The notes under the pieces were generated by a model. That model was not told where the DNA came from. It saw only the letters and a list, made by a program, of their open reading frames with translations, and ran no database searches. A program made the position numbers and the translations under genes. DNA of 64,000 nt from Pseudomonadota bacterium (GTDB lineage: Bacteria > Chloroflexota > UBA5177): contig JAJPIP010000035.1 of the NCBI GenBank assembly GCA_021324655.1, positions 86,121 through 150,120 on the forward strand, in the 5' to 3' direction. Each line of letters opens with the position of its first letter. Within the stretch, counting starts at the first letter, position 1. This document shows positions 2,261-62,157 of the stretch, piece by piece.

Positions 2261-2923
2261 ATGGTGGATAACAACGACACGTATGGCGTCGCACCGAATT
2301 GGGGTGGCCCGAACTATAGCGCGGGGACCTTCGGCGGCAATGACATGCCGTACGGGACCGGCTGGAACAATTATGCCGCTAACGCTCCCTTCCCGGGGAC
2401 CGGGTATACGGGTGGGAACGTCGACGGTCGTGCTGGTGGCAGCCGGCCGCATCCCGGGTATGGGGGAGGACCGGCGGCGCACGACGGCAATCCTGGTCCC
2501 GGCGCCTACTGGAGTGGGGTGCCGGCCGGTGCCTACGGTTATGAGCCGTACGTCAGTGGAGCCGGGAATGCCGCTGCCCCGCCCGGCACATGGGGTAATG
2601 CCGCCGGCTCCTACGGAACGGGTGGCAGCAGCGGCTACTGGCCGGGGTGGGGATACGGCCAGCCCAACTTCCGGCAACCGCAGTACCACCTTAGCGACCA
2701 GCAGATCGAGCAGCAGATCTCCGACGCGCTGGACAGCCATCCCGTGACCGCCAACGCCGATATCGATGTCGCGGTGCAGGACCATGCCGTGACTTTGACC
2801 GGCCGGGTCAAGGGCCGCCAGGCCAAGATGCTTGCCGAGGACATCGCCTGGAACAGCCCGGGCGTCGACGATGTCCACAATCAGGTCCAGGTCACCGGCC
2901 GCCGCGCGGCGCAATCAGCGTAG
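2261..2923 (+). CDS. BON-domain protein with Gly/Tyr/Asn/Pro-rich disordered N-terminal region
   Basis: 220 aa. Low-complexity G/Y/N/P-rich N-terminus of ~140 aa, then one BON domain (DIDVAVQDHAVTLTGRVKGRQAKMLAEDIAWNSPGVDDVHNQVQV). No signal peptide. RBS AAAGGAGA upstream. Confidence 0.7.
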   Translation: MVDNNDTYGVAPNWGGPNYSAGTFGGNDMPYGTGWNNYAANAPFPGTGYTGGNVDGRAGGSRPHPGYGGGPAAHDGNPGPGAYWSGVPAGAYGYEPYVSGAGNAAAPPGTWGNAAGSYGTGGSSGYWPGWGYGQPNFRQPQYHLSDQQIEQQISDALDSHPVTANADIDVAVQDHAVTLTGRVKGRQAKMLAEDIAWNSPGVDDVHNQVQVTGRRAAQSA

Positions 2924-2935
2924 GGGGAGGGCAGC

Positions 2936-3649
2936 ATGGCACAGAACAGCGGACGGCGGAACGGGCCATGGAACCCGCCCGGTGCCGAACTGGGCGGATT
3001 CGGCGAGGGCTTCGGGACCGGGTTCAACCTATACGGACCGGCCGGGCGGCAGATGGGCCTGCCGGCGACTGCCGGCCACTACAGTGATGAGGAGATCCAG
3101 CGCATCGAGGCCAGTCTCCTGGACAACAACCCCTATACGGCCGAAGCGGATATCGAGGCCACCGTCCAGAACCGCGTGATTACCCTCGCCGGAACCGTCA
3201 AAAACGCGCGGACGAAACGGATGGCCGAACAGGATGCCTGGTCGATCCCCAGTGTCAAAGATGTGAAGAACGAGATCCGCACAGCGGCGCGGGAACCATC
3301 GAGGACAGCCTCCCAATCCCCACCGGGCGAGGCGGCGGAGGCGCCACCAGCGCCGGTCGTCCGCAGCGATGAGAATCTGCAGAGCAGCATCTACGACGCG
3401 CTCGACGATGATCCCGCCATCCCGGCCGACATCGATATCAGCGTCAACGTCAATGATGGTCGGGCGACGCTCCAGGGCCGGGTCCCCAACAAACAGGTCA
3501 AGCGAGCCGCCGGTCACGATGCGTGGAACACTCCTGGGATCCGCGATGTGTACAACGAGTTGAATGTGGAGGGCCGGGCTGATCGGGCCCGGTCCGCGGC
3601 GAACCGCGCGGGCGACCTGGAGGTCGAGCGGCGCGCTGCCAAGAAGTAG
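2936..3649 (+). CDS. Tandem BON-domain protein (OsmY-like, apparently cytoplasmic)
   Basis: 237 aa. Two BON repeats (DIEATVQNRVITLAGTVKNARTKRMAEQDAWSIPSVKDVKNEI and DIDISVNVNDGRATLQGRVPNKQVKRAAGHDAWNTPGIRDVYNEL). Gly-rich N-terminus. RBS GGGGGAGGG upstream. No signal peptide. Confidence 0.75.
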   Translation: MAQNSGRRNGPWNPPGAELGGFGEGFGTGFNLYGPAGRQMGLPATAGHYSDEEIQRIEASLLDNNPYTAEADIEATVQNRVITLAGTVKNARTKRMAEQDAWSIPSVKDVKNEIRTAAREPSRTASQSPPGEAAEAPPAPVVRSDENLQSSIYDALDDDPAIPADIDISVNVNDGRATLQGRVPNKQVKRAAGHDAWNTPGIRDVYNELNVEGRADRARSAANRAGDLEVERRAAKK

Positions 3650-3661
3650 AGTGCCGGAGCC

Positions 3662-3688
3662 GGGGGCATTCTCCGTCCCCGGCTCGCG
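3662..3688. terminator. Putative bidirectional hairpin terminator between convergent genes
   Basis: GCCGGGGG-cattctccgt-CCCCGGC stem-loop in the 43-bp gap between the + BON gene (ends 3649) and the - manA gene (ends 3693). Confidence 0.35.
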
Positions 3689-3692
3689 CCTC

Positions 3693-4747
3693 TCAGGATG
3701 CCGCCAGGCCCAGCCCGGCGGCCGGAGCGAATTGGGCCAGGTAGGTGTCGATCTCCCGGTCCGAGTAGCCCCATGCGGCCAACTCGCGGCGGGTCACCTC
3801 CGATGAAGCTGGAACATAGGCGGTTAAAACTCGCCCGTCGCCCTCGATTTGGTAGGTTCCACACGCGGCCGGAATGAGGGCAGAGGCGTATGCGGCGAGG
3901 GATGCCGACTGCCCGCCTGTCCGTATCTCGATGGGATGATCCAGCGTGCAGAGGGCGACCGGACTGTCATGCGTGGTAAACGCGCCACCGCGTGTGTCCA
4001 GCTCCAGGGTGAAGTATGGAGCACCGACCAACATGCTGCGCCGACCGTCCGGAGCGGCGAGGGGGCGAATCAGACCGCGGGTCTCACGGTGGTAATCGAG
4101 CACCTGGCTGGCCTTGTCCACGTGCAATTGCCGTGGCTTGCCCTGCGCATCGACCCGTCCCCAATCGTAGATACGGTACGTCGTATCGCTGGTCTGCTGC
4201 AGTTCGAAGAGAAGAATTCCGGCCCCGATGGCGTGAACGGTCCCGGCCGGGATATAGACGACATCGCCCGGCTTGACCGGGAGGGAGTGCAGGATAGTCT
4301 CGAGCGCGCCGCTCTGTACCAGCCGCTCGTACTCCTCCGGGCTATTGGCGCGTTCGAACCCATAGGTAAGGGCGGCGCCGGGTTCAGCGGCGATGATGTA
4401 CCAGCATTCCGTCTTCCCGTACGGTTCGTGCTCGAGGCGCTGCGCCAGCGCATTATCGGGATGCACCTGGACCGAGAGAGCCTCGCGCGCGTCTATGAGC
4501 TTGGTGAGCAGGGGGAAGACGCGGTCCGGAGGGATATGGCCCATCAGATCCGCTCCCAGCAGCGACTGCAGATCGCTAATCGTCTTCCCGGCATAGGGTC
4601 CGTTGCGCACGCGATTCTCAGCGTAGACCTCCCACGCCTCGCCGACGAGCGTGGTCGCCGGAGCACCGGTTCCCATGTCGGCCAGGCGATGCCCTCCCCA
4701 GATGCGCTCGTCGAAACGCGGTTCAATCAAGAGTGGGTAGAGATCCG

Positions 4748-4751
<4 letters not shown>
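3693..4751 (-). CDS. manA: Mannose-6-phosphate isomerase, class I
   Basis: Type I PMI signatures (ERIWGG, QVHPD, ECWYII). Start set at the internal ATG (MTDLYPLL), which has a GGAGG RBS and makes an ATGA overlap with the galK stop. Confidence 0.8.
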
Positions 4752-5869
<1,118 letters not shown>

Positions 5870-5871
5870 GG

Positions 5872-6948
5872 TCAGCTCACGACGGTAAAGGAGGTCTCCG
5901 TCTGAAGGGATGATCCATCCGGCAGGGTGGCCGCGACCTGAACGGACACCGTCGTGCCCGGCGGGATGGAGGACGGAACGAGGACCGTGCAGGACGCATG
6001 ACCGCTCGGGTCGGTTGATGTGGTGCAGACCGCCGGATGTCCCACGATGGCAAATGCCATCGTGATGGTCACTCCGCCCGCGTTCGGTCCGCTCAGAACC
6101 GCTGTGACCGTTTCCGTCGAGCCGGGCGTGACGGACGGCTCCTGTGGGGAGGCGGTGAGAGTGGGACCGGCGGCTGTCGCGGTTGCGGTCGGGGTCGGAA
6201 TCACCGTGGCCGGGATGGGCGTCGCGGTCGGGGCAGGGACAGTGGTCGCCGTCGGCAGGGGGCTGGTGGCAGTTGCCGTGGGCGACGGAAGGATGGTGGC
6301 GGTGGGAGTTGGTGCCGGCTGGTGGATTGCTCGGTGGAGACGCCGAGCAAGGTGGGCCAGCGCCGACGACTGCCGGTGGAAGTCGCGCATCAGGAGCGAG
6401 GAGACGCTGGCCGGTGCGGCACCGTCGTACTCGAGATAGGACTCAACGAGAACGTCGTGGTACGTGAAAAACAGGAAGACCAGCGTCTCCTGTGCCGCGC
6501 TCATCACATAGGCCCGCGCGTAGAGGTGGGTGACGCGCGTCCCGTGCGTGCGCAGTCGCACGTCATGCAGGGCGCGGCGCGCCGCGGCGTGCGATCGGAA
6601 GACGTGAATCCCGTAGGCAAAGACGGTGTGATGGATCTGGAGGTTCTCGCCCCGCCCCGTCGTGTACTGCCAGAGTCCGGCCTGGATCCAGCCGCTGCCG
6701 TCCACCCGGTGCAGTCGCTGGAAACTGGTGTGATGAACCGGACCAAAGTAGTGGTCCGCCTCCGCGTTGGTGGCGGGGAGCACGACGATGTGCGTGTGGT
6801 GCGGATAATCGGCTCTGGGAAGCGCCAGAGAGAGTGCGGCTGAAGATTGTTCCGGAATGGCTGCTCCGACCACGAGCAGGCAGGCAACCAGGGCAAAACG
6901 ACGAATAGGCTCTCCCTCCCCCGCCAGAATACGGCCTCGGCGAGTCAT
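5872..6948 (-). CDS. Secreted/membrane-anchored hypothetical protein with His-rich domain, Pro/Thr linker and Ig-like C-terminal domain
   Basis: Hydrophobic N-terminal signal/anchor (FALVACLLVVGAAIP), then a His-rich region. Central (PTATx)n low-complexity linker. Thr/Ser-rich beta-rich C-terminus. Confidence 0.5.
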   Translation of the reverse strand: MTRRGRILAGEGEPIRRFALVACLLVVGAAIPEQSSAALSLALPRADYPHHTHIVVLPATNAEADHYFGPVHHTSFQRLHRVDGSGWIQAGLWQYTTGRGENLQIHHTVFAYGIHVFRSHAAARRALHDVRLRTHGTRVTHLYARAYVMSAAQETLVFLFFTYHDVLVESYLEYDGAAPASVSSLLMRDFHRQSSALAHLARRLHRAIHQPAPTPTATILPSPTATATSPLPTATTVPAPTATPIPATVIPTPTATATAAGPTLTASPQEPSVTPGSTETVTAVLSGPNAGGVTITMAFAIVGHPAVCTTSTDPSGHASCTVLVPSSIPPGTTVSVQVAATLPDGSSLQTETSFTVVS

Positions 6949-10195: not shown

Positions 10196-11113
10196 ATGAC
10201 CGACACACTGCCTGATGTGGCGATCCCTCATCTCCGTGACTATATCGAGGAACAGCGCCGGGGGAAGGGTGAAGAGGACGCGCCGCCCTATGCTCACCCC
10301 GTCGATCAGTGGATCTTGCGTACCCTCAACAGCTTACCGGTGCGCACCGTCCTCGACCGCGCCATCGACGCCTACATCAGTACCCAGATGGGCACTGAGC
10401 TCGCCTCCGGCATCCCGATCGACGGCAAATCCTTTCCCGACCTCTACCAGGTGCTGACCAAGTGCACCGAGACGCTCAACATCCCCATTCCGCACGTCTA
10501 TGCCATGAACAGTCCTTACCTGTTCAACGCGTTCACTGCCGGCACCGACGAGTACGCCTTTATCGGCATCACGGCCGGCCTCACCGAGTTTTTCGACCCG
10601 GGCGAAGCATGCTTTGTCATCGGCCACGAGTGCGGGCATATCGCCGCGCGGCACATGAAATACCACACCCTGGTCATGATCCTGGCGGGGACCCTGCCGC
10701 GGTTCCTCGGGCCGCTGGGCGCGCTCCTGAGCCGGACCGCGGAGGTGCCCCTGATGGCCTGGGAGCGACGCTCCGAGATCACCGCCGACCGTGCCGGCCT
10801 CCTTTGCTGTGGCGATCTGAAAACGGCGGAGCGCGCCCTGGTCCGCCTGGTCGCGGGATTCGCCGATGTCGACCGCGTCGATATCGATGACTATCTCGAG
10901 CGCGCCAAGGATCTCGAGTCGTATCACGGCCTCTCCGGCTGGCAGCAGCTCTTTCAGACGCACCCGCTCATCCCCAAGCGCATCGAGGCGATCCGCCTCT
11001 TTGCCCGCTCTGAGCTGTACTACGAGATCACGGGCCAGCCGCGTCCCACCGGGCTGGAACTCCTGACGCGCCCGGAGCTCGACAGGCGCATCAACGACAT
11101 TGTGAAGCCGTGA
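10196..11113 (+). CDS. M48-family zinc metallopeptidase (HtpX/Ste24-like, soluble form)
   Basis: HExxH motif (VIGHECGHIAARH) with the downstream glutamate ligand (EITADRAG). No obvious TM helices. RBS GAAGGGG before the ATG at 10196. The stop overlaps the GTG start of the next gene (GTGA). Confidence 0.75.
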   Translation: MTDTLPDVAIPHLRDYIEEQRRGKGEEDAPPYAHPVDQWILRTLNSLPVRTVLDRAIDAYISTQMGTELASGIPIDGKSFPDLYQVLTKCTETLNIPIPHVYAMNSPYLFNAFTAGTDEYAFIGITAGLTEFFDPGEACFVIGHECGHIAARHMKYHTLVMILAGTLPRFLGPLGALLSRTAEVPLMAWERRSEITADRAGLLCCGDLKTAERALVRLVAGFADVDRVDIDDYLERAKDLESYHGLSGWQQLFQTHPLIPKRIEAIRLFARSELYYEITGQPRPTGLELLTRPELDRRINDIVKP

Positions 11114-12837
11114 CGGACCAACCGCTCCCGGACATCGTCGAGCAGATCGCGGCGGTTGCAGCCGATCTGGACGACGAGCGGCTCGCCGGGTCGCTGGCCG
11201 TGCTGTCCGAGCAGCGGGCACGAGCCCAGGTGCAGATCCTCATCGCGGGGACGGCCGGGTCGGGACGCGCCGCCCTCGTCAACAGCCTGCTGGGCACCGA
11301 TCTCCTCCCCTCCTCGCCTATTCCCAAGGCGCCGGTTGGCCTGCAACTGCGCTACCACCCGGCGCTCACGGTCCAGCTGGTGGCTGCCGATGGCCGCCGG
11401 GCCATCCCGACAGCGGAGCTGCGAACCGCACTCGTCGATCCGCGCCTCCCTCAGCGCTACCAGTACGTCGAAATCGGCATGCCCGCCGAGATTCTTACCA
11501 TGGTCGACGTGCGGATCGAAGATCTACAGTCGTCCTATGCGCCCGAGGACTGGTCACATCTCGTGGCACGCAGCGACTTCGTCATCGTCGTCCTCAACGC
11601 CGGCGCCCTGCTCTCCCAGACGGAGCGTGACTTCTTGCGGGATCAGCTGGGGCCACGCGGGCTCCATCGTGCCGCCCTCGTCATCAATCAGATCGATCAA
11701 GTGCCGGAGGACGAGCGGGAGAGCATTCGTGCCGCGGTCCGCGCTTTCCTCGGACCCTTTGAGAGCCGGCCCGTCAGCATCGAAGCCGTCGCTCCCCAGC
11801 TTGCAACGGATACTCGTCACCCCCTGCGGATCCTCTTTGCCGACCTCGCCGCGAGCTCGCTCCGGCTGCGTGAGTCGGCCGTCCGAGACGCTGCAGCCGC
11901 CGCTCTGGACGAGATCGAGGCAGTCGCTGCCGGCTCGCTGGCTCTGGCGTCATTGGAGGTGGAGCAGGTGGAGCGGGCGCGCGCGGCCCTGGCGGAGCGA
12001 CAGGAATGGCTGCGAGGGCGGATCGAACGGGTGCAGCGGCGCGTTGACGCTCTCATCGGCACGGTTGTGCGGGAGCAGATGCACGAGGCGATTCGTGGGA
12101 GCGGTGAGGTCATCCGCCGTCTGCTACCGGAGGAAATCGCCGCCGTGGACGATCTGCAAGACGTGCGTCGCTATCTCCCCGGCTACCTCCAGAGTCTGTG
12201 GGAAGAGATCCTGGAGCGGCGCATGACGGCGATCAGGGCCTCCCTCGAGGACGAGGCGGGGCGCATCGAAGAGCTGATCGAAAGCGATCTGCGGGAGCTG
12301 GTGGAGGCCGTGGAGGGATCGCTTGGCGCGACCGCCGGCGCGTTCGGCGGACAGAACACCGCCCGCGTCTTCGTTATGCCCCGCCGCAGTCAAAGCCACG
12401 CGGAGAGTGTCGCGCGCGGCCTCAGCCTGCACGGCTTCGTCTGGCTCATCATTGCCACTTTTTTCCCCGTCAGCTTCATTCCCGGCCTCCTCACCCTCGG
12501 CGGCAGCCACCTCATCCGCCACTTCTATGCGCGAGACATCGAGGACGCCAACCGCAAGGCCCTCACCGAGGCCGCCCTGGCGGCGACACGCGACCTGGAG
12601 CGTGACATCCACACCGAGGTCGACCGGCAGTTCGGGGATCTCGCGGCCGACATGCACCGCGCCGTGGCGGACCGATATCAGGACGCGGTGCGTCGCCTGG
12701 AAGCGATGCTCGGTCAGGGGACGGCGGACCGCGCAGCGATGGAAGAGCGGCGGGAGAGGCTGACCCGACTCGTTGCAGAGACCATCCCTGCTCTGCGGCA
12801 GGAGATGGAAAGAGGGGAAAAGGCCGGAGCGGTATGA
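11110..12837 (+). CDS. Bacterial dynamin-like protein with degenerate GTPase motifs (DLP-1)
   Basis: 575 aa. DLP architecture: GTPase-like N-domain, long helical stalk, hydrophobic paddle near aa 430-460 (FVWLIIATFFPVSFIPGLLTLGG). G1 is GTAGSGRA (K to R, S/T to A) and there is no DxxG G3 motif. G4-like NQID is present. GTG start overlaps the M48 stop. Confidence 0.7.
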   Translation: MTDQPLPDIVEQIAAVAADLDDERLAGSLAVLSEQRARAQVQILIAGTAGSGRAALVNSLLGTDLLPSSPIPKAPVGLQLRYHPALTVQLVAADGRRAIPTAELRTALVDPRLPQRYQYVEIGMPAEILTMVDVRIEDLQSSYAPEDWSHLVARSDFVIVVLNAGALLSQTERDFLRDQLGPRGLHRAALVINQIDQVPEDERESIRAAVRAFLGPFESRPVSIEAVAPQLATDTRHPLRILFADLAASSLRLRESAVRDAAAAALDEIEAVAAGSLALASLEVEQVERARAALAERQEWLRGRIERVQRRVDALIGTVVREQMHEAIRGSGEVIRRLLPEEIAAVDDLQDVRRYLPGYLQSLWEEILERRMTAIRASLEDEAGRIEELIESDLRELVEAVEGSLGATAGAFGGQNTARVFVMPRRSQSHAESVARGLSLHGFVWLIIATFFPVSFIPGLLTLGGSHLIRHFYARDIEDANRKALTEAALAATRDLERDIHTEVDRQFGDLAADMHRAVADRYQDAVRRLEAMLGQGTADRAAMEERRERLTRLVAETIPALRQEMERGEKAGAV

Positions 12838-14873
12838 CGGAGGGATATGCCGGCGTCCGGCGCCGGACAGAAGAGATCGAGCGGATCCTGGAAAGCATGG
12901 CCGGCTTGATCGGGTCCGGCGAGGGCACTGCCCTCGGGACGCTAGGCCTGGCGGGGGACGCGGCGCACCTGCGTGCACGCGCCCGAGATCTGGAGCGCGG
13001 GCTCTTCACCATTGTCGTCGTCGGGGAGTTCAAAAGCGGGAAGAGCACGCTGCTAAACAGCATGCTGGGCAAGGGGACGCTGCCGGCGAAGGCGACCCCC
13101 TGCACCGCCATCATCACGGTGCTTGTCCACGGCACGAACGACCGCGTCGCCGTGTACGAGGTCGACCGGGAGGAGCCACGCTTTCTCGACTGGGAACAGT
13201 TCGTTCGCGAGTTCCAGCTCTCGCTGCAGGATCAGGAGACGCTGCAGGAAGGGCGGGCCCTTGACCGCTTCGCACGTGTCCAGTACGCCGAGATCGAAAG
13301 CACGCATCGCCTCTGCGACGATGGCGTGCGGCTGGTCGATTCGCCCGGCCTCGGCGAGCATCTCAGCCGCACGCGCGTGACGACCGGCTATCTCCGCCAG
13401 GCCCAGGCGGTGATCGTCGTCCTCAACGCCACCCGGATCCTGGGGCAGGCGGAGCGCGAATTCATCGAGAACGAGCTGGGACGAGGACGGCTCGAGAACG
13501 TCTTCTTCGTCGTCAACCGGATGGATCAGATCAATCTCGCCGACGCCGCCGGCATTCGGCACTGGGTCGAATCCAACCTGGCGTCGCATTTCATGGACGA
13601 TGACGGCCGGTTCGATCGTGACCTGTACGAGCGGCGGGTCTTTTTTGTCTCCGCCCGTCAGGCTCTGACGGCGCGGACCGATGCGGTCGATCAAGACCTG
13701 CTGGCGGCATCCGGCGTACCGGCCCTCGAAGAGGCACTCGAACGTTTTCTCACGAGCGGCGACAGGGCGACGGCGATGCTCCGCTCGGCCGTCGCGGTCG
13801 TCGAGCCGGTTCTGGCCCGGGCGGAGCATCATATTGAGCAGCGCAGGGCGGCCCTCGACCGCCCGATTGCAGAACTCGAGCAACGGCGGGGGGAGGCGGA
13901 GAGCCGGCTGGAAGGGCTGCAGCGACGCAAGACGGAGATCGAGCGCACCGTCTTCCTCTTCGGTGAGGTCGTGCAGCGCAAGATCTACAGTGACCTCCGT
14001 GCCTTCATCGAGGGAATGCGCGAGGCCTGGGACGAGGATTCGCGCCGGCTCATGGATCTGGACGACGCCGTCTCTTTCAAGAACTTGCTGGCCTCCTATA
14101 CACAAGCCGGGGCGAAGGAGCGGATGGCAGCGGCGATCGGCGAGCAAGTCCAGCACTACCTTCAGGCGAAGTTCGGGTGGTGGGTCGAGCGGGTGCCGGC
14201 GGTGGTAGAGGGCGACCTGCGCCTGATGATGGCGGAGGTCGAGGCACAGATCGAAGAGTTCGAATTGGCACTCGACGAGATAGCGGCGGCCTTCTCCGGG
14301 GCCGCGCCGCGCCGGCGCACGCCCACCGATCCCTCTGCCAATCTGGCCGACCTCGCCCTCACCATGCAAGATATCCACGGCATCACCGAGGGCATGCTGT
14401 TCCCCTCTGACTGGGCCGACGTGATCGGCACCATGGCCCAGCAGGCAATCGCTGTCTTCCTGGTCGGCACCTTCCTCACCGGCGGCAATTTCCTGATCGC
14501 GATTCTCGCTGTCGAGGCGTTCCATTTCGGCATGCACGAGCACGAGGCCAAGAAAAAGGTGCGCCAGGAACTGGGCGAGCGGCTGCAGCAGGGACTGCGC
14601 GATCAGGTCGAGGAGAAGCGTCCCTTTATTGAGGAGTTGATCGGACAGCGCTTCCGTGCTCTGGCCCTGGCGGTGACCGAAGCGATACAGCGCCAGATCG
14701 AGGAGGTCCGCGCCGAGCAAGAGCGCATCCTCCGGCAGAAACGTGATGAAAACTTCTCAGTCGGCGTGGAGCACAAGCGTCTCTGCACCATCGAGGACCG
14801 ACTGCACACGCTGAACGACGAGCTGTGCACCGCCGTCCAGGCGCCGCCGTCAGAGCATCGAGCCAGGTGGTGA
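12834..14873 (+). CDS. Bacterial dynamin-like GTPase (DLP-2, canonical motifs)
   Basis: 679 aa. G1 GEFKSGKST, G3 DSPGLGE, G4 VVNRMDQ. Helical stalk and paddle hairpin (AIAVFLVGTFLTGGNFLIAILAVEAF). ATGA overlap with DLP-1. Confidence 0.85.
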   Translation: MTEGYAGVRRRTEEIERILESMAGLIGSGEGTALGTLGLAGDAAHLRARARDLERGLFTIVVVGEFKSGKSTLLNSMLGKGTLPAKATPCTAIITVLVHGTNDRVAVYEVDREEPRFLDWEQFVREFQLSLQDQETLQEGRALDRFARVQYAEIESTHRLCDDGVRLVDSPGLGEHLSRTRVTTGYLRQAQAVIVVLNATRILGQAEREFIENELGRGRLENVFFVVNRMDQINLADAAGIRHWVESNLASHFMDDDGRFDRDLYERRVFFVSARQALTARTDAVDQDLLAASGVPALEEALERFLTSGDRATAMLRSAVAVVEPVLARAEHHIEQRRAALDRPIAELEQRRGEAESRLEGLQRRKTEIERTVFLFGEVVQRKIYSDLRAFIEGMREAWDEDSRRLMDLDDAVSFKNLLASYTQAGAKERMAAAIGEQVQHYLQAKFGWWVERVPAVVEGDLRLMMAEVEAQIEEFELALDEIAAAFSGAAPRRRTPTDPSANLADLALTMQDIHGITEGMLFPSDWADVIGTMAQQAIAVFLVGTFLTGGNFLIAILAVEAFHFGMHEHEAKKKVRQELGERLQQGLRDQVEEKRPFIEELIGQRFRALALAVTEAIQRQIEEVRAEQERILRQKRDENFSVGVEHKRLCTIEDRLHTLNDELCTAVQAPPSEHRARW

Positions 14874-14976
14874 CGGTGAACAAACGGCGCTCGGACACGG
14901 GGAAATATCCTGTCCTTCCGGAGTCCGCCACAGGCGGCTGGTCCGAGGCAAGCGCGATGGGTTGCAGCGTGCGTGC

Positions 14977-16422
14977 TCACGCATGCTCGACCTCGCGCAT
15001 CACGTCGTCTACGCGGCGCGTCAAATCGTCAGTCCACTCCTCGATCGCGCTCATGTCATGCATCCTTTGCCGAAGTTCATCGAGACGTGGCTGCCGGCGT
15101 GTCCAGCCGGCATAGTAGGCGTCGGCCTCCTGCAGGAGCGCATCCAACCGGTCAAAGTACTGCGCTGTCTCGAGATGCAGAGCATCCAGTAGGCGGCGTC
15201 CGGTGGCCTCCACGCGCCGCAGGAGGTCGGCTTCCACGTCCGTCTGGAAGACGTTGCGGGCGACCCAGCGGCCGAGCGTCGCGCCTCCCTCCGCCACTCG
15301 CTCATCCCCGAGAGCCTGCCCCACCATCTGACCGAGGGTCGAGCCGGTGTGGGCCGCCGGATGGGTGACGGCAATCTGGTCCGGGCGAATGATCCAGGTG
15401 GTGAGGTCGAAGGGAGGCAAAGTCACCGGCAGATCGGCCGCCATGTCGCGGACATCGTCGCTGACGGCCGCGCCGTATCGTTTGACCAGAACACCCCACG
15501 GAACCGCACCTCCTCCGGCGCGCAGTATCCGGTGCGCCTCCTCACGCGCGCTCGCCAGGAACGCATCGTCATGCGTCCGGAGGTCTGACGCCGGCCCACG
15601 TAGCCGCGTTCGTCCCGTTGCCAGTTGGGAACGCATCTGTGCGCGGTACTCCTCGATCCGTCCCGCCTCCTCCGCTTCCGCCTGAGCCACCTGGCGCCGC
15701 TCCTGCGTGATCTCACCTGCCAGCGCTTGCCGGGAGAGGGAGAGAGCGGAGTGGAGGCAGGCGAGCCGTGACAGAAGGGGGAGGCGATCGCTGCCGAGGA
15801 GTCCAAGCAGCCACGGCACGAACCAGCCCAGGTCCCCGTGGTCGGGCGCCGCCGACACGGCGAAAAGCCGGGGGCGCCCCACCAGCTCATTCCCCATCCC
15901 CTCCAGCGCCGCTCGCGCCCAGGTGAGGACCTCGTCGCGTTCACCCTCATCAATCATGTCTATCCGGTTGACCACGAAGATGAGATTGCCCCGCAGCATC
16001 TCATTCACCTGCCGTGCCATCTCGCGCTCCGCTCCCGAGAGGATCTGATCGGCACTCAACACCATGACCGCCAGGTCGGCACGGCCAATCTCCGCCAGGA
16101 CGCGTTCCGTGGCGGCCGGATCCTGAAAGAGCCCGGGCGTGTCGACGGCGATCCAGCCGGACCTTGGATCAAGCGGAACCGTCTCGACGGCAGGCGAAAA
16201 CCCCACGGCGCGCTCCGGCAGAACCGACGTGCCGATCAGCCGATTGATCAGAGATGACTTCCCGGTCTTGAAGTTTCCGAAGACCACCAGGCGCCGTTCG
16301 CGGCGATCAAGATTTTCCAGTTGATCGAGGACATCGCGCAGCGCCGCTCGATCCGCCATCCCGGCCGGCGGCTCCGGTTCGCGTAGGGCACGGGCACGAG
16401 ACCACATATCAGTGAGCGGCAT
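14977..16422 (-). CDS. Bacterial dynamin-like GTPase (DLP-3)
   Basis: G1 GNFKTGKSS, G3 VDTPGLF, G4 VVNRIDM. Start set at the internal ATG (MPLTDMW, 482 aa). Convergent with DLP-2. Confidence 0.8.
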   Translation of the reverse strand: MPLTDMWSRARALREPEPPAGMADRAALRDVLDQLENLDRRERRLVVFGNFKTGKSSLINRLIGTSVLPERAVGFSPAVETVPLDPRSGWIAVDTPGLFQDPAATERVLAEIGRADLAVMVLSADQILSGAEREMARQVNEMLRGNLIFVVNRIDMIDEGERDEVLTWARAALEGMGNELVGRPRLFAVSAAPDHGDLGWFVPWLLGLLGSDRLPLLSRLACLHSALSLSRQALAGEITQERRQVAQAEAEEAGRIEEYRAQMRSQLATGRTRLRGPASDLRTHDDAFLASAREEAHRILRAGGGAVPWGVLVKRYGAAVSDDVRDMAADLPVTLPPFDLTTWIIRPDQIAVTHPAAHTGSTLGQMVGQALGDERVAEGGATLGRWVARNVFQTDVEADLLRRVEATGRRLLDALHLETAQYFDRLDALLQEADAYYAGWTRRQPRLDELRQRMHDMSAIEEWTDDLTRRVDDVMREVEHA

Positions 16423-16507
16423 GAGAAGCGTCGACCGCTGTTTCCCCGAAAATATAGACTTCGGGGGTGCTGTCGAACATTCTTGACGGACGCTCCCGAT
16501 CCCAGCC

Positions 16508-17071
16508 GTGAGGCTCGTCCTTACCTGGCGATCGCCTCCCTCCGCATCATGCGCTAGGTGGAGTTCAACGCCCGAGACCTCCTCGGCGGAGGGACCGGCC
16601 AACGCCACGGTGGATCACTACGAGGCTGCCGTCGTCGGCCGGCCCGGAGACTCATCCTGGTACGCCTTCGATCGTGCCCGATATCGTCTCCTCCGGTACG
16701 ACATATTTCCGCGGCGGCTCATCCGGTATGCGCTCTGTCCTCCCGACACGCTGAGAGAGGGCGCGACGATCGTGCAAAGGATTGTGCTGGGACCGGTAAG
16801 TGTGGAGATGGCGGTCCGCGTCATCGACGTCTGGGATCGGGAGGAAGGGAACGTCCGTGAGGTAGGTTTCACGTATGCAACCCTTGTCGGTCATGCGGAG
16901 TGTGGCGTCGCGACCTTCAGGGTCCGGCGGGATCAAGATCAGGGTGTGAGGATCCTGATCGATGTGCGATCTCGGCCCGGCACTCGCCTGACCCATCTGG
17001 CACGCCCCGTGAGTCGGCTATTTCAGCGGGCTATCACACGTGCTGCGCTACGTCGCCTGGCTCGCTCCTGA
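16508..17071 (+). CDS. DUF1990-like protein
   Basis: GFTYATLVGHAECGVATFRV resembles the conserved DUF1990 core (GFAYGTLPGHPE-G-E). Start uncertain. Confidence 0.45.
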   Translation: MRLVLTWRSPPSASCARWSSTPETSSAEGPANATVDHYEAAVVGRPGDSSWYAFDRARYRLLRYDIFPRRLIRYALCPPDTLREGATIVQRIVLGPVSVEMAVRVIDVWDREEGNVREVGFTYATLVGHAECGVATFRVRRDQDQGVRILIDVRSRPGTRLTHLARPVSRLFQRAITRAALRRLARS

Positions 17072-25880: not shown

Positions 25881-26658
25881 TGGCAGAGCCCTGCTCATCT
25901 GCATCAAGTAAATCATCGGTCATGACGACGATGGTGCAGGGGAGCGTGGAGCACGCCGGCCGCGCCAGCGCGGATCAATCGGGCGGCGGGGAAGAGACGT
26001 CGATGGCGGTGGCCGGCGTGAGGGGGAGACGTCCCTGGCCCGTGGGGTACCGAGCCGGCCGCGAGATCACCAGGTCGGGCGGCACCGGGCAGAGCATCTC
26101 CGGCGGGATGACCGGCCCACGATTCTGCGTACGACGACTGAGCCAGCTGAACTGAGCGAACCGCCCCTGCTCACCGAAGACCACCACCGGGTCGAGCCAG
26201 TCAGGAGAGGGACACCTCGCAGATGTCGCCCTGGGCGCTGCTAGGGTGGGGATATCGTCCAGGAGCAGGCACTCCCGGGGGGGAGATCGGCCTCACCCTA
26301 CTCTCCCCAGGCGCCCCCTGTCGCGACATAGGTTTTTCTGGCAGCAGATGGGCTTGTCCCGGCCAGTCGCGGCATGGTCATCGTCGGGGCCGGCTCCGCC
26401 GCGCCCGCCTTCTCCCTCGCACCGCATCGTCTGGGATTGCCACGCCCTCTATCCGCGCCCGCACGCCAGATCGGACATTGCGGCGCGAGAGGCCGGGGAG
26501 GGCACGGCAGGAGCCGGCCCCTACGCCACGATGGTGACGACACGCAGGGACAAGCCCTGCGCCTACAATGATCGCGGCCTCCGCCCTGGGTCCGGCGCGA
26601 ACAGGGACCTCTTGCGTCTTCCGTGTCAGGGCGCTACTGTTGGGCAGGATCGAGCCCT

Positions 26659-46796: not shown

Positions 46797-49112
46797 ATGA
46801 CCACTGGTCCCCTTACCGACACGGCGCTCGCTCTCTTTCGGACCGTTTTCGAACAGTCGCCGACCAGCCTGCAAGTTTTTGCCCCGGACGGGTCCACGCT
46901 GGCCGTGAACGCGGCCTGGGAATGCCTTTGGGGGACATCTCGTGACGCCATCCAGGACTACAACATCCTGGCCGACGAGCAGCTGGTCGAGAAGGGCCTT
47001 ATGCCCCTCATCCGGCGCGCCTTCGCCGGTGAGACCGTCGATCTGCCGGCGATCCGCTACCAGCCGGACGACACTCTCCCCGGCATCGCCGGCATTCCGT
47101 ATCGCTGGGTAAGCGCGCGGGCTTTTCCGCTCCGGGACGGCGACGGAGAGGTGATCGGGGTGGTGCTCAGCCACCAGGAGATCGCCGACACGATGAGTGA
47201 GGACAGACGTCAGGGCCGGGAGCGGTTTCGCCTGACGTTCGAGGAGGCGCCGCTGGGGATCGCTCTCCTCGAGCTTCACGGCGAGGGCGACGTCGTCGAG
47301 AGGGCAGACATTCTGCAAAGCAACCGCGCCTTTCGCTCCTTTCTGGGCTACAGCGAGGAGGAACTGCGATCGCTACCATCTGCCGCCTATACGCACCCTC
47401 TCGACCAGGAGACTCAGTCGGCGCTCCACGCCGATTTGCTCTCCGGTCGCCGTGGAGCAGGGCAAATCGAAAAGCGCTATATCCGGAAGGATGGCAGCGT
47501 CGTCTGGGGCCGACTCAATGTGACGGCAGTTCGCCGCTCCCGGCGCTCCGTCGTGGCCATTGTGATGGTCGAGGACATCACGGACCGGCGCCGTGTCGAG
47601 GAAGCGCTGCAGGGAAGTGAGGAGCGTCTCCGCACCATCTTTGAGCAAGCGCCGATCGGGATCGCCCTGATCGATCGCGACGGCCGGTACCTCGCCGTGA
47701 ATCCGGCACGACGTCGCATGCTGGGCTACGAGGCCGACGATTTAATCGGCCGGCACTACCTGGAGGTCACGCACCCGGATGACGTCGAGCTTGACCAGGA
47801 AATCAACCGCCAGGCAGCGGATGCCGGACAGGGCGGCTTCCAGGTGGAGAAGCGCTTTCTGCGCAAGGACGGCAGCGTCGTCTGGTCGCACGTCACGGTA
47901 CGGACTCTGCGGGACGAGAGCGGCGACATCCGCTACTCGATCTCCATCACCGAGGACGTGACGGCCCGCAAGGAGGCGGAAGCGCAGCGTGCGCGCCTCT
48001 TTGAGGCCGAGCAGTCGGCACGCCGGCACATGGAACGGTTAGTGGCGGAGCGCGAGGCAGTCCTGGGCCAGATCGCGGAAGGGGTCATCATCGCCGATCC
48101 GGACGGACGGCTGGTGTTTGTCAACGAGGAAGCATGCCGTATCTATGGCGTGGCCGAACTGGGTGTCGGCCCGGAAGAGTACAGCCGCGCGTACCACGTG
48201 TTTACCCTCGACGGCGAGCCGTACCCGTCGCTCGATCTGCCGATGTCGCGCGCCATTCGGAAGGGTGAGATCACGACCAATGTCCCCCTGCGGGTCAAGC
48301 GGCCGGATGGGACGGAAGTGATCATCCGGGCCGGCGCCAAACCGGTGCGGACCGACGACGGTGTGCTGGTCGGCGCCGTGCTGACGGTGCGAGACGTCAC
48401 CGCCGAGTACGACGTGGAGCGGCAAAAGGATGACTTCCTCTCGGCCGCCGCGCACGACCTCCGGACTCCACTCACCAGCGTCAAGGGACGACTGCAACTC
48501 CTGCGGCGCCGCGCCCTCCGGGGAATGCTCGACCCGCCGCAACTGGCCGAGGATCTCGACCGGATCGAGAGCGGCCTGAATCGCATGACCTCGCTCATCG
48601 GCGAATTGCTGGACGTTGCCAACATTCAGATCGGACGTCCCTTGGCGCTTCATCCCACCGCGACCGACCTCGTCCAGTTGGCGCGGAACGCCGCTGCCGA
48701 TCAACAGAACGTCTCGGACCGGCACCATATCAGGGTTGATGCCAGGGAACCGGTCGAGGGGATGTGGGATGTCTCTCGTCTGGAGCGGGCACTCGCCAAT
48801 CTGCTCTCCAACGCCATCAAGTACAGTCCGTCGGGCGGGGAGATCACCGTGAAAGTCCGAGCAGACGGAGACACGGCAATTCTCAGCGTGGCGGATCGCG
48901 GCGTGGGTATCCCGGCCGGCGATCTGCCGCACGTCTTCGATCGCTTCCGACGTGGCGGGAACGTTGCCGGCAAGATACCGGGGACCGGGATTGGGCTCGC
49001 CGCCGTGCGCGACATCGTGGACCGCCACGGCGGATCGATCGAGGCGCGTAACCGGCCGGGCGGGGGAGCGATCTTCACGATCCGCCTCCCCCGGCACCCA
49101 GACGGCTCTTAG
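46797..49112 (+). CDS. Multi-PAS sensor histidine kinase
   Basis: About four PAS/PAC repeats (recurring KDGSVVW...V motifs). HisKA H-box (AAAHDLRTPLTS). HATPase_c N and G boxes (LLSNAIKYS, DRGVGI, GTGIGLA). Confidence 0.85.
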   Translation: MTTGPLTDTALALFRTVFEQSPTSLQVFAPDGSTLAVNAAWECLWGTSRDAIQDYNILADEQLVEKGLMPLIRRAFAGETVDLPAIRYQPDDTLPGIAGIPYRWVSARAFPLRDGDGEVIGVVLSHQEIADTMSEDRRQGRERFRLTFEEAPLGIALLELHGEGDVVERADILQSNRAFRSFLGYSEEELRSLPSAAYTHPLDQETQSALHADLLSGRRGAGQIEKRYIRKDGSVVWGRLNVTAVRRSRRSVVAIVMVEDITDRRRVEEALQGSEERLRTIFEQAPIGIALIDRDGRYLAVNPARRRMLGYEADDLIGRHYLEVTHPDDVELDQEINRQAADAGQGGFQVEKRFLRKDGSVVWSHVTVRTLRDESGDIRYSISITEDVTARKEAEAQRARLFEAEQSARRHMERLVAEREAVLGQIAEGVIIADPDGRLVFVNEEACRIYGVAELGVGPEEYSRAYHVFTLDGEPYPSLDLPMSRAIRKGEITTNVPLRVKRPDGTEVIIRAGAKPVRTDDGVLVGAVLTVRDVTAEYDVERQKDDFLSAAAHDLRTPLTSVKGRLQLLRRRALRGMLDPPQLAEDLDRIESGLNRMTSLIGELLDVANIQIGRPLALHPTATDLVQLARNAAADQQNVSDRHHIRVDAREPVEGMWDVSRLERALANLLSNAIKYSPSGGEITVKVRADGDTAILSVADRGVGIPAGDLPHVFDRFRRGGNVAGKIPGTGIGLAAVRDIVDRHGGSIEARNRPGGGAIFTIRLPRHPDGS

Positions 49113-49124
49113 ATCCTCTCGATC

Positions 49125-49457
49125 CTAGTGATGGTGGCCGTGGCCACCGCCGCAGCCGCACCCACCACCGTTGGCGGTCTGGATGCGGAAATTGGGGCCC
49201 ACCAGCTCGTCGGAGCAGTCTACCTGGGCATCCTCGAGGAACGGCGCCGAATCGGGATCGATGACGAGGGTCACGCCCCCCAGATCGACCTGTGTATCAT
49301 CCGGCTGCGCCTCATCGAAGCCCATCTGGAAGTGCGCGGAGCCGCAGCCGCACTGTGATGCGACGAGGATACGAATGTCTTGCGGCACGTCCGCGGGGCG
49401 AGCGTCCCTGGCCTTCTTCAGTTCCTCGGTTGCTCGCGGGGTGACGGTGATGTTCAC
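49125..49457 (-). CDS. HesB/IscA-family iron-sulfur cluster insertion protein (His-tailed)
   Basis: N-terminal MNITVTPRATEEL..., first cysteine in QCGCGS, C-terminal CGCGGG. Ends in GHGHHH. Confidence 0.55.
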   Translation of the reverse strand: MNITVTPRATEELKKARDARPADVPQDIRILVASQCGCGSAHFQMGFDEAQPDDTQVDLGGVTLVIDPDSAPFLEDAQVDCSDELVGPNFRIQTANGGGCGCGGGHGHHH

Positions 49458-59593: not shown

Positions 59594-60163
59594 ATGACAA
59601 CCGAAACACAGACACAGACGACGACCTGGCAGTTTGACACCGCGCACACGCTGATTGAGTTCGCGGTCAAGCACATGATGGTGTCCACGGTGAAGGGCCG
59701 CTTCACCGACTTCACCGGCACCATCACCGGGGATGTCAACGATCCGACCAACGCTCAGGTGGACGTCACGATCCAGGCGGGCAGCATCGACACGCGCAAC
59801 GAGCAGCGCGACGCGCACCTCAAGAGCGCGGACTTCCTCGACGTTGAGACCTATCCGACGATCACGTTCCAGAGCAAGAAGATCGCCGAGCGGCAGAAGA
59901 ACGTCTATACCGTCACCGGTGATCTGACGATCCGCGGCGTGACCCGGGAGATCGAGCTTGAGGCCTCCGTCAACGGCGTCGGCAAGAGCCCCTGGGGCCA
60001 GGAAGTGATCGGCCTTACCGTGACCGGCATCCTCTCGCGCCAGGAGTGGGGCCTGACCTGGAACGTCGCCCTGGAGACCGGTGGCGTCCTGGTGGGTGAT
60101 ACCGCTCGCATCAACATCGAGGTCGAGGCCACGAAGACCGCCCCGGCCGGAGCGCAGCAGTAA
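59594..60163 (+). CDS. YceI-family (polyisoprenoid-binding) protein
   Basis: WQFDTAHTLIEFAVKHMMVSTVKGRFTDF...TRNEQRDAHLKSADFLDVETYP is characteristic of YceI. GAAGGAGGG RBS. Confidence 0.8.
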   Translation: MTTETQTQTTTWQFDTAHTLIEFAVKHMMVSTVKGRFTDFTGTITGDVNDPTNAQVDVTIQAGSIDTRNEQRDAHLKSADFLDVETYPTITFQSKKIAERQKNVYTVTGDLTIRGVTREIELEASVNGVGKSPWGQEVIGLTVTGILSRQEWGLTWNVALETGGVLVGDTARINIEVEATKTAPAGAQQ

Positions 60164-60804
60164 TGGCGGGCGGACGAGAGCGGGTCCAGTTCTACTTCGA
60201 CCCGCTCTGCCCCTGGGCCTGGATGACCTCCCTGTGGATTCGGGAGGCACGCAAGGTGCGGCCGATCGACGTCGAGTGGAAGTTCTTCTCGCTGGCCGGC
60301 GTCAACGACCGTGCCGATCAGTGGCACGGCCCGCTGCGCATCGCCGCCCTGGCTCGCCGCGAGGGCGGCAACGAGGCGGTCGATCGCGCCTATCTCGCCA
60401 TGGGCCGCCTCTTCCACGAGAACAAGGATTCCTTCGACAAGATCGAAGAGCTGGCGGAGGTCGTGAAGCCGTATCTGGCCGATGTCGGTCTGCCGCCCGA
60501 TCTCGGGGAGCGCGCCCTGGAGGACGAGAGCACCCTGGAGGATGTGCTGCGCGAGCACACCGAGGCGGTCGAGAAGATGAGCGCCTTCGGCGTTCCCTGG
60601 CTCGTCACGGAGGGGGACGAGGCGGGCTTCTTCGGTCCGGTGATCGGGGAGCTGCTGACCGGCGATGCGGCCGGCGAGCTGTGGGACCACTTCCGCTGGC
60701 TGAGCGGTCAGCCACAGCTCTACGAATTGAAGCGTGGCGGCCGCAAAGCCATGCAGCCGCTCCCGGGTCTCTCCGAGCGGTTCTCGCCGGCAACGGCGCG
60801 GTAG
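60163..60804 (+). CDS. DsbA-like thioredoxin-fold protein (HCCA isomerase / DsbA family)
   Basis: N-terminus VQFYFDPLCPWAW, a single-Cys CPW motif. Start overlaps the YceI stop (TAATG). Confidence 0.6.
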   Translation: MAGGRERVQFYFDPLCPWAWMTSLWIREARKVRPIDVEWKFFSLAGVNDRADQWHGPLRIAALARREGGNEAVDRAYLAMGRLFHENKDSFDKIEELAEVVKPYLADVGLPPDLGERALEDESTLEDVLREHTEAVEKMSAFGVPWLVTEGDEAGFFGPVIGELLTGDAAGELWDHFRWLSGQPQLYELKRGGRKAMQPLPGLSERFSPATAR

Positions 60805-60919
60805 ACATTCGCCGGAGCGATCGGTGCCGTAGGGGACGGCCCGAGCCGTCCCGCCTTGGATTCGCAATCTCTCGATATCCAGCGCCAGGGCGGGCTGCCA
60901 CTCGGGGCAGCCCCTACGT

Positions 60920-61218
60920 CCAACCGCTGCGGCGGTGACCCGTACGGCCAACCGCCGCGGCGGTAGCCCCACCGGTTAACCACCGCAACCGCCCCTGCGT
61001 CCAACCTCTGCGGCGGTGTACCCACCGCCAACCGCTGCGGCGGAGGCCCCACCGGCCGCCACCGCGGTGGCCCCACCTGGCCAATCACCGCGGCCGCCCC
61101 TACGGCCAACTACCGCAGCCGCTACCCGTACGGCCAACTACCGCGACCGCTACCTGTACGGCCTACCACGGCCTCCGTCCCCCACGGCCTACCGCGGCCG
61201 CCGTCCCTACGACCGGCT
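60920..61218. repeat. Tandem array of ~11 degenerate 25-29 bp GC-rich repeats (consensus ~CCAACYRCYGCGGCGGNNNCCCNACGG), each with a short CCGC-N-GCGG hairpin
   Basis: Seen directly: head-to-tail units at 60920, 60948, 60976, 61001, 61028, 61056, 61081, 61106, 61134, 61162 and 61188. No unique spacers between units. Fills the convergent intergenic region between the DsbA-like gene and the homocysteine methyltransferase gene. Confidence 0.7.
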
Positions 61219-62157
61219 CATCTCCGTCGATCGGGCCCATGCCGCGAGTTCCTCGATCTGACCGGGTGTCGTGCGGCAGCAGCCGCCGATACCCTGGGCG
61301 CCGGCGGCGTGCCAGGCGGCAGCGGGACCGGCAAGATCGGCCGTTCCCCTGCCGATCCAGGCGTTGCGTTTCGCATCATAGCCTTCACCGGAGTTGGGGT
61401 AGGCCAGGATGGGCTTATCGGTGGCGGCACGGAGCGCCCTGACAAGCTCGGCGATGTAGCGCGGCGCCGTGCAGTTGACGCCGATCGCCGCGACCTGCCG
61501 ATACCGATTCAGCTCGGCCGCCACCTCACCAATCGGCTCCCCATGCGCCGTCTGTGCCCCGTCGCGCCCGCTCAGGCTGATCCAGCCCGGAACGCCATAT
61601 TCCTCGAGGAGACGGGCCAGGGCGCGGGCCTCGCGTCGCGAGGGGATGGTCTCGGCGGCGATGAGATCGGCGCCGCTCCCGGCCAGCAGGGCCAGGCGAG
61701 GCCGGTGGAAGGCGATGAGATCCTCTTCGCTCAGGTCGTAGTCGCCGGTGTACTCGGCGCCGTTGGCAAGGTAGGCGCCGTAGGGACCGACGGACGCCGC
61801 CACCAACGGGCGCGGACGGCCGGAACGGTGGGCGGGATCGGCCCAGAACTCGTTGCGCGCCTCCTGAGCTACACGCACCGCGCGCCGCAGGAGGTCCGCC
61901 GCCTCATCTTCCCGGAGGCCCCGGGCAGCGAAGCCGGGAAATGTCGCTTGATAGGTCGCCGTGGTCGCGACATCGGCCCCAGCACGGAAGTAATCGGCAT
62001 GGACCTGCCGGATGAGGTCGGGCGCGTCGATCAGCACCCGGGCCGACCAGAGAGGATCGTTCAGGTCGCAGCCGCGGCGCTCCAGCTCGGTGGCGAGAGC
62101 ACCATCCAGAACGATCAGCGGAAAGTCCCGGAGAATTGTTTCAATGGGGTTCACCAC
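61207..62157 (-). CDS. mmuM: Homocysteine S-methyltransferase
   Basis: Aligns along the whole length of E. coli MmuM (LDGALATELERRGCDLNDPLWSARVL, VGPYGAYLANGAEYTGDY, AIGVNCTAP, YPNSGE, GIGGCCRTTP). GTG start assumed at VVNPIETI. The upstream extension of the ORF was rejected. Confidence 0.8.
   Translation of the reverse strand: MVNPIETILRDFPLIVLDGALATELERRGCDLNDPLWSARVLIDAPDLIRQVHADYFRAGADVATTATYQATFPGFAARGLREDEAADLLRRAVRVAQEARNEFWADPAHRSGRPRPLVAASVGPYGAYLANGAEYTGDYDLSEEDLIAFHRPRLALLAGSGADLIAAETIPSRREARALARLLEEYGVPGWISLSGRDGAQTAHGEPIGEVAAELNRYRQVAAIGVNCTAPRYIAELVRALRAATDKPILAYPNSGEGYDAKRNAWIGRGTADLAGPAAAWHAAGAQGIGGCCRTTPGQIEELAAWARSTEMSRS

Follow-up and report, generated by a model that had tools for sequence, protein, structure and literature searches.

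REPs that carry a terminal GTAG have been described in Chloroflexi (Di Nocera et al. 2013, PMC3733652). One of their families, GTAG-23, is known from Thermomicrobium roseum and Roseiflexus castenholzii, where it is clustered in blocks at few loci. T. roseum has about 90 copies, in clusters, and head-to-tail arrangements of REPs are rare (PMC3733652). What REPs do at the ends of transcripts has been examined in Escherichia coli, where REP325, a REP cluster in a 3'-UTR, is partly a Rho-dependent terminator and also stabilises the upstream mRNA, and where REPs located between convergent genes are correlated with higher expression of both genes (bioRxiv 10.64898/2026.03.23.713779). Here, a GTAG-type REP is a terminal GTAG beside a 6–13 bp G+C-rich stem-loop.

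The window, which is the whole 64,000 nt (64 kb) stretch of DNA analysed here, comes from an uncultured Chloroflexota lineage, and the best named homologues of its genes are from Chloroflexota MAGs. A Pfam scan of 51 ORFs in the window returned ordinary chromosomal genes, and no mobile-element genes or cas, partition, replication or Y1/IS200-type transposase genes were found among them. The repeats lie in a 402 bp intergenic gap between two convergent genes, for a DsbA-like protein and a methyltransferase, and the gap and its flanks contain the following features.

60163–60804, plus strand: gene for an Rv2466c-like/DsbA-family thiol oxidoreductase, 213 aa (Pfam PF22234, 5e-33; PF01323, 5e-10)
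60829–60855, plus strand: predicted REP hairpin A, GTAG-GGGACGGC-ccga-GCCGTCCC-GCC (MFE and centroid folds, sequence pattern)
60856–60888, no strand: 33 bp spacer between hairpins A and B, whose GTAG ends face outward (sequence, pattern scan)
60889–60917, minus strand (read 60917–60889): predicted REP hairpin B, GTAG-GGGCTGCC-ccgagt-GGCAGCCC-GCC (sequence, fold, pattern)
60911–61204, plus strand: degenerate minisatellite of 11 units (TRF, parsing, unit profile)
61205–61211, plus strand: partial twelfth unit, CCCTACG, whose CTA (61207–61209) gives, on the minus strand, the TAG stop of the methyltransferase gene
61207–62157, minus strand: gene for a homocysteine S-methyltransferase, 316 aa form with a GTG start (Pfam PF02574, 4e-79)

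Two strong inverted hairpins, which the original prediction had missed, are found directly to the left of the array. Hairpin A has an 8 bp G+C stem and a 4 nt loop and begins 24 nt past the stop codon of the DsbA-like gene, the transcript of which is directed into hairpin A and then into the array. Both hairpins have a terminal GTAG beside the stem-loop and share the form GTAGGGG-stem-loop-stem-CCCGCC. Comparison of A and B revealed compensatory changes in the stems, with the head, the loop core CCGAG and the tail conserved, and the inverted repeat that they form (60828–60845 with 60901–60918) is 83% complementary.

The published GTAG-23 consensus is given only as a figure, and T. roseum elements were extracted directly from 300 of the 918 kb of the megaplasmid NC_011961. 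They read GTAGGGGTCAGGCGGTGCCTGACCCGCC and GTAGGGGCGAGGCGCTGCCTCGCCCGCC, and are arranged in alternating orientation in blocks with a period of approximately 225 bp, present only at about 147–225 kb (approximately 80 kb of the first 300 kb). In NC_011961, another small palindrome, GCCGCGCC-accg-GCGCGGC, comes after each plus-strand REP (47,900–49,300 in the segment L020; also in L021 and L022). When the pattern GTAGGGGN{10,20}CCCGCC, i.e. GTAGGGG-N(10–20)-CCCGCC, was used as a query, 35 matches were found in the 300 kb of the megaplasmid and none in about 60 kb from other Chloroflexota relatives. The window contains two matches where 0.04 are expected, and both are at this locus. Indeed, in all of the source sequence read, which is the 64 kb of the window and about 8 kb beyond it, the pair is found here alone.

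Hairpins A and B thus have the family-specific sequence of T. roseum GTAG-23, namely the exact head GTAGGGG, the exact tail CCCGCC and a variable G+C-rich complementary stem with compensatory changes, and they resemble that family further in the phylum-level group of the host, in being clustered and not dispersed, and in their intergenic position. They differ from the T. roseum elements in having 8 bp stems and 4–6 nt loops, where those have 9 bp stems and 3 nt loops. As the design matches that of T. roseum and occurs twice against 0.04 expected, the assignment of hairpins A and B to GTAG-23-like REPs is well supported at the sequence level. A Y1 (RAYT, IS200/IS605-like) transposase, usually encoded by a single-copy gene per genome, was not found among the 51 ORFs in the 64 kb. 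Window-wide, the GTAGGGG heptamer is found six times against 4.6 expected, and three of the six are in these 400 bp. Taken as a class, GTAG-tagged hairpins show no clear excess in the window, where there are about eight distinct sites (raw count 12 against 4.9 expected, after multiple counting). One such hairpin, GTAG-G-CGCAGGG-cttgt-CCCTGCG, is at 26543–26566 on the minus strand with a second GTAGGGG 40 nt downstream (26518–26524). It lacks the GTAGGGG...CCCGCC design of A and B, and could be a REP-like element of another kind or one that has decayed.

The start of the array coincides exactly with the CCCCTAC tail of hairpin B, the GTAGGGG head of which (CCCCTAC on the plus strand, 60911–60917) doubles as the first 7 nt of the first unit, U1. 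Parsing from this point gives 11 head-to-tail units, U1–U11, that extend to 61204 with no spacers and are 28, 28, 25, 29, 26, 24, 26, 28, 28, 26 and 26 bp long (range 24–29 bp, typically approximately 27 bp). Their plus-strand consensus is CCCCTACGGCCAACCACCGCGGCCG, in which C17, G19, C20 and G25 are invariant. TRF reported a period of 28 with 8.8 copies at 60911–61145 (65% matches, 9% indels), a period of 26 bp at 61158–61207 and a higher-order period of 80 bp at 60920–61094, with scores of 92–176. The units share a mean pairwise identity of 67%, against 52 ± 5% in composition-matched shuffles, and core unit patterns occur 6–7 times in the array where less than one occurrence is expected. Units of about 10–100 bp that are arranged head to tail without spacers and are more similar than expected by chance define a minisatellite, and the array is of this kind.

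In the original prediction, a tandem array of about 11 units had been placed in a convergent intergenic region, without spacers and overlapping the stop codon of the methyltransferase gene, and all of this was borne out, the stop codon being within the partial unit CCCTACG. The span originally given, 60920–61218, is replaced here by 60911–61204 plus the 7 bp of the partial unit. The palindrome CCGC-N-GCGG, which each unit was said to hold, is less widespread. It is exact in U1, U2 and U5 alone, appears as CCACCGCGGTGG in U6 and is partial in U4, and is thus carried by four or five of the 11 units; U3, U8, U9 and U10 do not contain it. The plus strand of the array is 48% C, 26% G, 15% A and 10% T, with a C/G ratio of 1.5–2.2 along its length, and the array is the most C-over-G-skewed 296 nt block in the window (rank 1 of 63,705).

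The most closely related units are U1/U4 (90% identity), U8/U9 (89%), U1/U2 (82%) and U10/U11 (81%). Traces of an approximately 80 bp duplication of three units are seen in the likeness of U1–U3 to U4–U6, and U8/U9 and U10/U11 appear to be traces of pair duplications. From these identities, the history of the array includes a duplication of three units (approximately 80 bp) and two or more of single units. Units start with CCCCTAC or with a variant of it that has one mismatch (CCCGTAC, CCCCTGC or CCCCCAC). The complete 7–8 nt head motif is exact in U1 and U8 alone, with one mismatch in U2, U4, U9, U11 and the partial U12. In minus-strand orientation, the heads are GTAG in three complete units (four with the partial twelfth unit at the stop codon), GTAC in three, GTGG in four and GCAG in one.

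When the window was searched with an nhmmer profile of the 11 units, all matches with E<1 were within 60911–61204 and the best match outside had E = 1.5; core patterns with mismatches allowed were likewise found nowhere else in the 64 kb. A covariance model of the unit matched nothing in 81 kb of relatives' loci or in the 300 kb of T. roseum. A 25 nt degenerate pattern that matches four of the units was found at one place in 596 Gb of reference genomes, a collection that does not include the source genome. This is a single copy in Arthrobacter coding sequence (4685–4709 and 1532–1556 in the two entries retrieved, L008 and L009), which presumably encodes the C-terminal domain of a ribosome hibernation factor and is translated as ...VVYRRSGWTYGVISL... 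(VYRRSGWTYG). The match is a chance one of the expected kind, and the resemblance of this motif to the GYRRGGWPYG reading of the array in the original prediction is also due to chance. A slightly broader pattern returned the same locus, with identical sequence, and three single chance matches from JGI metagenomes, and nothing from viral contigs. The whole gap, used as a blastn query, had no match in a phage collection or in a plasmid collection that contains NC_011961. A dispersed family of the unit was therefore rejected, as no copies beyond chance were found in the window, relatives, reference genomes, metagenomes, or viral, plasmid and phage collections. The array units lack the dispersed or multi-locus copies that characterise REPs, and a search for the consensus, proposed originally as a way to distinguish a dispersed REP-like family from a unique locus, points to the latter.

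The array is, on sequence grounds, non-coding and unlikely to be translated. GC content by codon phase is 0.76/0.80/0.68 across the array against 0.71/0.45/0.88 in the flanking genes, and of the 11 unit lengths, 24 bp alone is divisible by 3. ORFs that cross the array had no Pfam match, and the longest on the minus strand (129 aa) had no match at E≤0.001 among 1.84 billion representative proteins. With no codon phase, out-of-frame unit lengths, no Pfam match and no homologue, coding sequence for a repeat protein was rejected. The original view that the array is not translated therefore holds in phase GC, Pfam and protein searches, and the possibility raised with it, that in relatives the array might encode a conserved repeat protein, is not the case among those 1.84 billion proteins.

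Other identities fared no better. No Rfam covariance model matched in the gap, even at E≤10, and a known structured RNA was rejected. The array shares repeat length (approximately 28 bp) and partial palindromy with CRISPR, and differs from it in having no spacers, no cas genes or cas domains in the 64 kb, and strongly degenerate units; the original exclusion of CRISPR stands. An iteron or centromere array was rejected, as there are no partition or replication genes and the window is ordinary chromosomal DNA. So was a G-quadruplex minisatellite, the G4Hunter peak being 1.24, below the usual 1.5, with no G3+ motif with loops of ≤12 nt.

Predicted folding gives a signal for the array as a whole and not for its units. 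Against dinucleotide shuffles, the whole array has z = -3.9 on the minus strand and -2.8 on the plus strand, and in the predicted fold of the minus-strand RNA a compound hairpin begins 2 nt past the methyltransferase stop codon. Single units do not exceed shuffles in fold stability (|z|<2 for 20 of the 22 unit/strand folds). As their hairpins are at shuffle level, the units are not convincing mini-REPs, and they are not the stable stem-loops with a GTAG end that REPs would be. The original prediction proposed RNA folding as a check; the whole array modestly exceeds shuffles and the single units, each described as a hairpin, do not. No canonical intrinsic (U-tract) terminator was found in the gap.

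An identical array is present in three assemblies, from Logan SRR5579884, JGI Ga0209810 (L011) and ENA ERZ27279673. Over the full 3365 bp overlap with the window, the Logan and ENA contigs have two and four substitutions, respectively, all within the methyltransferase gene. No copy-number variation, the mark of a VNTR, was found in the array among three haplotypes (the window, Logan/JGI and ENA), and the comparison is a weak test because they are near-clonal (≤0.12% different) and the samples may be related. The contigs of Logan SRR5579884, JGI Ga0209810_1003602 and ENA ERZ27279673 k141_955088 all stop exactly at window position 60636, which is inside the DsbA-like gene about 270 bp to the left of the repeat locus, and the DsbA-like gene is also partial at a contig end in an NCBI TPA MAG (HZU11972.1, 153 aa). 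The shared ends suggest a strain-variable junction or an assembly-graph branch, away from the array itself.

The suggestion that the array is a hotspot for repeat expansion receives no support, as it is identical in the three haplotypes and its units, at 65–90% identity, are too diverged for frequent slippage. The original prediction had named a lack of both copy-number variation and secondary-structure signal as telling against it; variation was not seen, but the whole array has the modest fold signal described above.

Among relatives, the gene pair is syntenic in only one locus, L002, where the methyltransferase is 75% identical. There, the gap is 61 bp and includes one unrelated hairpin but no array. 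In the other loci fetched (L003–L007 and L013–L016), the synteny of the gene pair has been lost. As the gap in L002 does not contain the array and the others are not syntenic, we conclude from these comparisons that the array, together with the neighbouring hairpins, appears specific to this lineage. Derivation of the unit from the single hairpin in L002 was also considered and rejected, since the two have only a 9-mer, CCACCGCGG, in common, which is not significant.

These findings bear on the original description of the array as REP/minisatellite-like. That part of it stands insofar as REP hairpins adjoin the array and variants of the REP tail motif open its units, but the unit itself is not a dispersed family. 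We consider it probable that the gap contains a GTAG-23-like REP dimer followed by an old, degenerate 11-unit minisatellite that arose by local duplication from the REP tail and has a modest effect at transcript ends. Derivation of the units from the REP tail and its flank is a reasonable inference and nothing stronger. REP hairpins would have arrived in a short, terminator-bearing gap, and the units would have been seeded by a segment of approximately 27 bp, made up of the CCCCTAC tail of B and the DNA next to it. The units may then have been multiplied by local tandem duplication, through slipped-strand or unequal exchange and possibly helped by REP-associated nicking, in an amplification that would include the one three-unit and two one-unit duplications, and the copies would later have decayed through point changes and 1–4 bp indels. 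Against this, the link between unit and REP consists of adjacency and the common 7–8 nt head motif, the unit profile matches nothing in the T. roseum REP clusters, single-unit hairpins are at shuffle level, GTAG-tagged hairpins show no clear enrichment in the window, the scan of 51 ORFs returned no Y1/RAYT transposase and the gap has no U-tract terminator. Moreover, the T. roseum clusters alternate with a period of approximately 225 bp, unlike the direct 27 bp array.

Several of these points would sit as well with a plain neutral minisatellite unrelated to REPs, an intergenic piece of approximately 28 bp duplicated by replication slippage and now decaying, next to hairpins that are the terminators of the DsbA-like gene and have CCCCTAC in common with it by coincidence. 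A unit unique to this locus, with chance-level hairpins and adjacent-pair and three-unit duplications of the kind typical of minisatellites, no RAYT in the window and a heptamer count (6 against 4.6) that is unremarkable window-wide are what such an origin predicts. However, it leaves to coincidence that A and B match the head and tail of T. roseum GTAG-23 exactly where 0.04 chance matches are expected, that the array starts precisely on the tail of hairpin B and that half of the GTAGGGG heptamers in the window fall in this 400 bp, and we regard it as possible but doubtful. The units could alternatively be REPs themselves, head-to-tail mini-REPs with a GTAG-like head, a 4–6 bp stem-loop and TTGGC, amplified by a REP-associated tyrosine transposase, a mechanism proposed for clustered GTAG families, Thauera GTAG-1 among them. 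About seven of the 11 minus-strand units do read G(T/C)(A/G)(G/C)GGG, 2–3 nt, a short palindrome and TTGGMC, GTAG elements with a 5 bp stem are known via a tandem-repeat database, and some families consist largely of clustered elements with heads that degenerate to GTGG and similar (Di Nocera 2013, PMC3733652). The insignificance of the unit hairpins, the presence of a GTAG head in only three complete units (four with the partial twelfth), the lack of other copies of the unit in the collections searched and the lack of a RAYT among the 51 window ORFs make this unlikely.

A bolder version of the REP-tail origin would see the array as the record of an undescribed REP-associated amplification, in which a GTAG-23-type REP in Chloroflexota is repeatedly nicked or rejoined at its GTAG/CTAC end and gives rise to direct arrays of units made of REP tail and flanking DNA, and the resulting G-rich 3'-UTR, from the stop codon on, tunes expression of the methyltransferase; we consider this quite improbable. 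Least likely is that the array is a functional repeated-motif element, whether a binding-site array (iteron- or centromere-like, as F sopC), a structured or sponge RNA derived from a 3'-UTR, or a stop-proximal structure that throttles translation termination of the methyltransferase. Regular unit spacing around a core of four invariant columns, a stable predicted structure from 2 nt past the stop codon and an array that is identical in three haplotypes could be read in its favour, but the last is uninformative because the haplotypes differ by ≤0.12% overall. Furthermore, the 64 kb contain no genes for partition, replication or mobile elements, Rfam has no match, the only syntenic relative (L002) does not have the array, and units that are 65% alike with indels are poorly conserved for an array of binding sites. 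What the gap contains is a dimer of GTAG-type REPs beside a degenerate minisatellite, another instance of bacterial intergenic repeats of known kinds.

The methyltransferase gene is intact, with a short C-terminal tail that a C-terminal alignment places within the length range of homologues, and its product is identical to a cluster member (P0246). As the array is its immediate 3' flank and starts at its stop codon, it should belong to the 3'-UTR of the methyltransferase mRNA and, as modelled, is most likely transcribed as a G-rich, highly structured one. Read-through from the DsbA-like gene would first pass hairpins A and B, after which the tract is rich in C and poor in G. By analogy with the E. 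coli REP clusters, the array may form a transcription barrier between the convergent genes and afford some protection of the upstream mRNAs from 3' exonucleases. A modest insulating and stabilising effect is our best guess, with a neutral passenger nearly as likely; the array is not a dedicated machine, and probably adds structure to the ends of both transcripts and no more.

Like the E. coli BIMEs and REP325, the locus groups palindromic G+C-rich units 3' of convergent genes, in the intergenic DNA between them, where a barrier or exonuclease block would be plausible by analogy. BIMEs alternate the orientation of their REPs and belong to families of hundreds of copies that are linked to a RAYT gene, whereas the 11 units here are direct, degenerate and unique to the locus. 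The array also resembles the mycobacterial MIRU/VNTR loci, in which tandem units of tens of bp are intergenic, touch the stop codon of a neighbouring gene, diverge by substitutions and indels and grow by local duplication. MIRUs are 40–100 bp long, occupy about 40 loci within operons in each genome and differ in copy number from strain to strain, unlike the array, which has a 27 bp unit, a single known locus and no length variation in three haplotypes. Compared with GTAG-23, the differences extend from the hairpins to the array, as the alternating T. roseum clusters include no 27 bp direct array, the unit is unmatched in 300 kb of T. roseum and the blastn search with the whole gap was empty in the plasmid collection that includes NC_011961.

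REP hairpins of the GTAG-23 type had been reported from Thermomicrobium and Roseiflexus, and they appear to be present in an uncultured Chloroflexota lineage also. That a REP dimer can adjoin a direct minisatellite with a common tail motif adds a little to what is known of the growth of REP clusters. In genome scans, the locus is a useful example of a 28 bp repeat block that is neither CRISPR nor a gene nor a new class of RNA, and its significance beyond annotation is small.

Other features of the region were seen in passing. About 4–7 kb beyond the right end of the window, at 3250–6537 of the Logan contig (L001), a gene for a 1095 aa protein with TIR_2, AAA_16 and TPR domains adjoins genes for a cNMP-binding protein and an Amidase_3 protein. 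This STAND-like architecture is common in anti-phage defence. Within the window, three adjacent genes for dynamin-family GTPases (575, 679 and 543 aa) are found at 11110–16608, two on the plus strand and one convergent, and their products carry Dynamin_N and a bacterial dynamin-like helical domain. Two tandem BON-domain genes are at 2261–3649, and the GTAGGGG at 2920–2926, which precedes the start of the second of these, is probably part of a ribosome-binding region (GGGGGAGGG).
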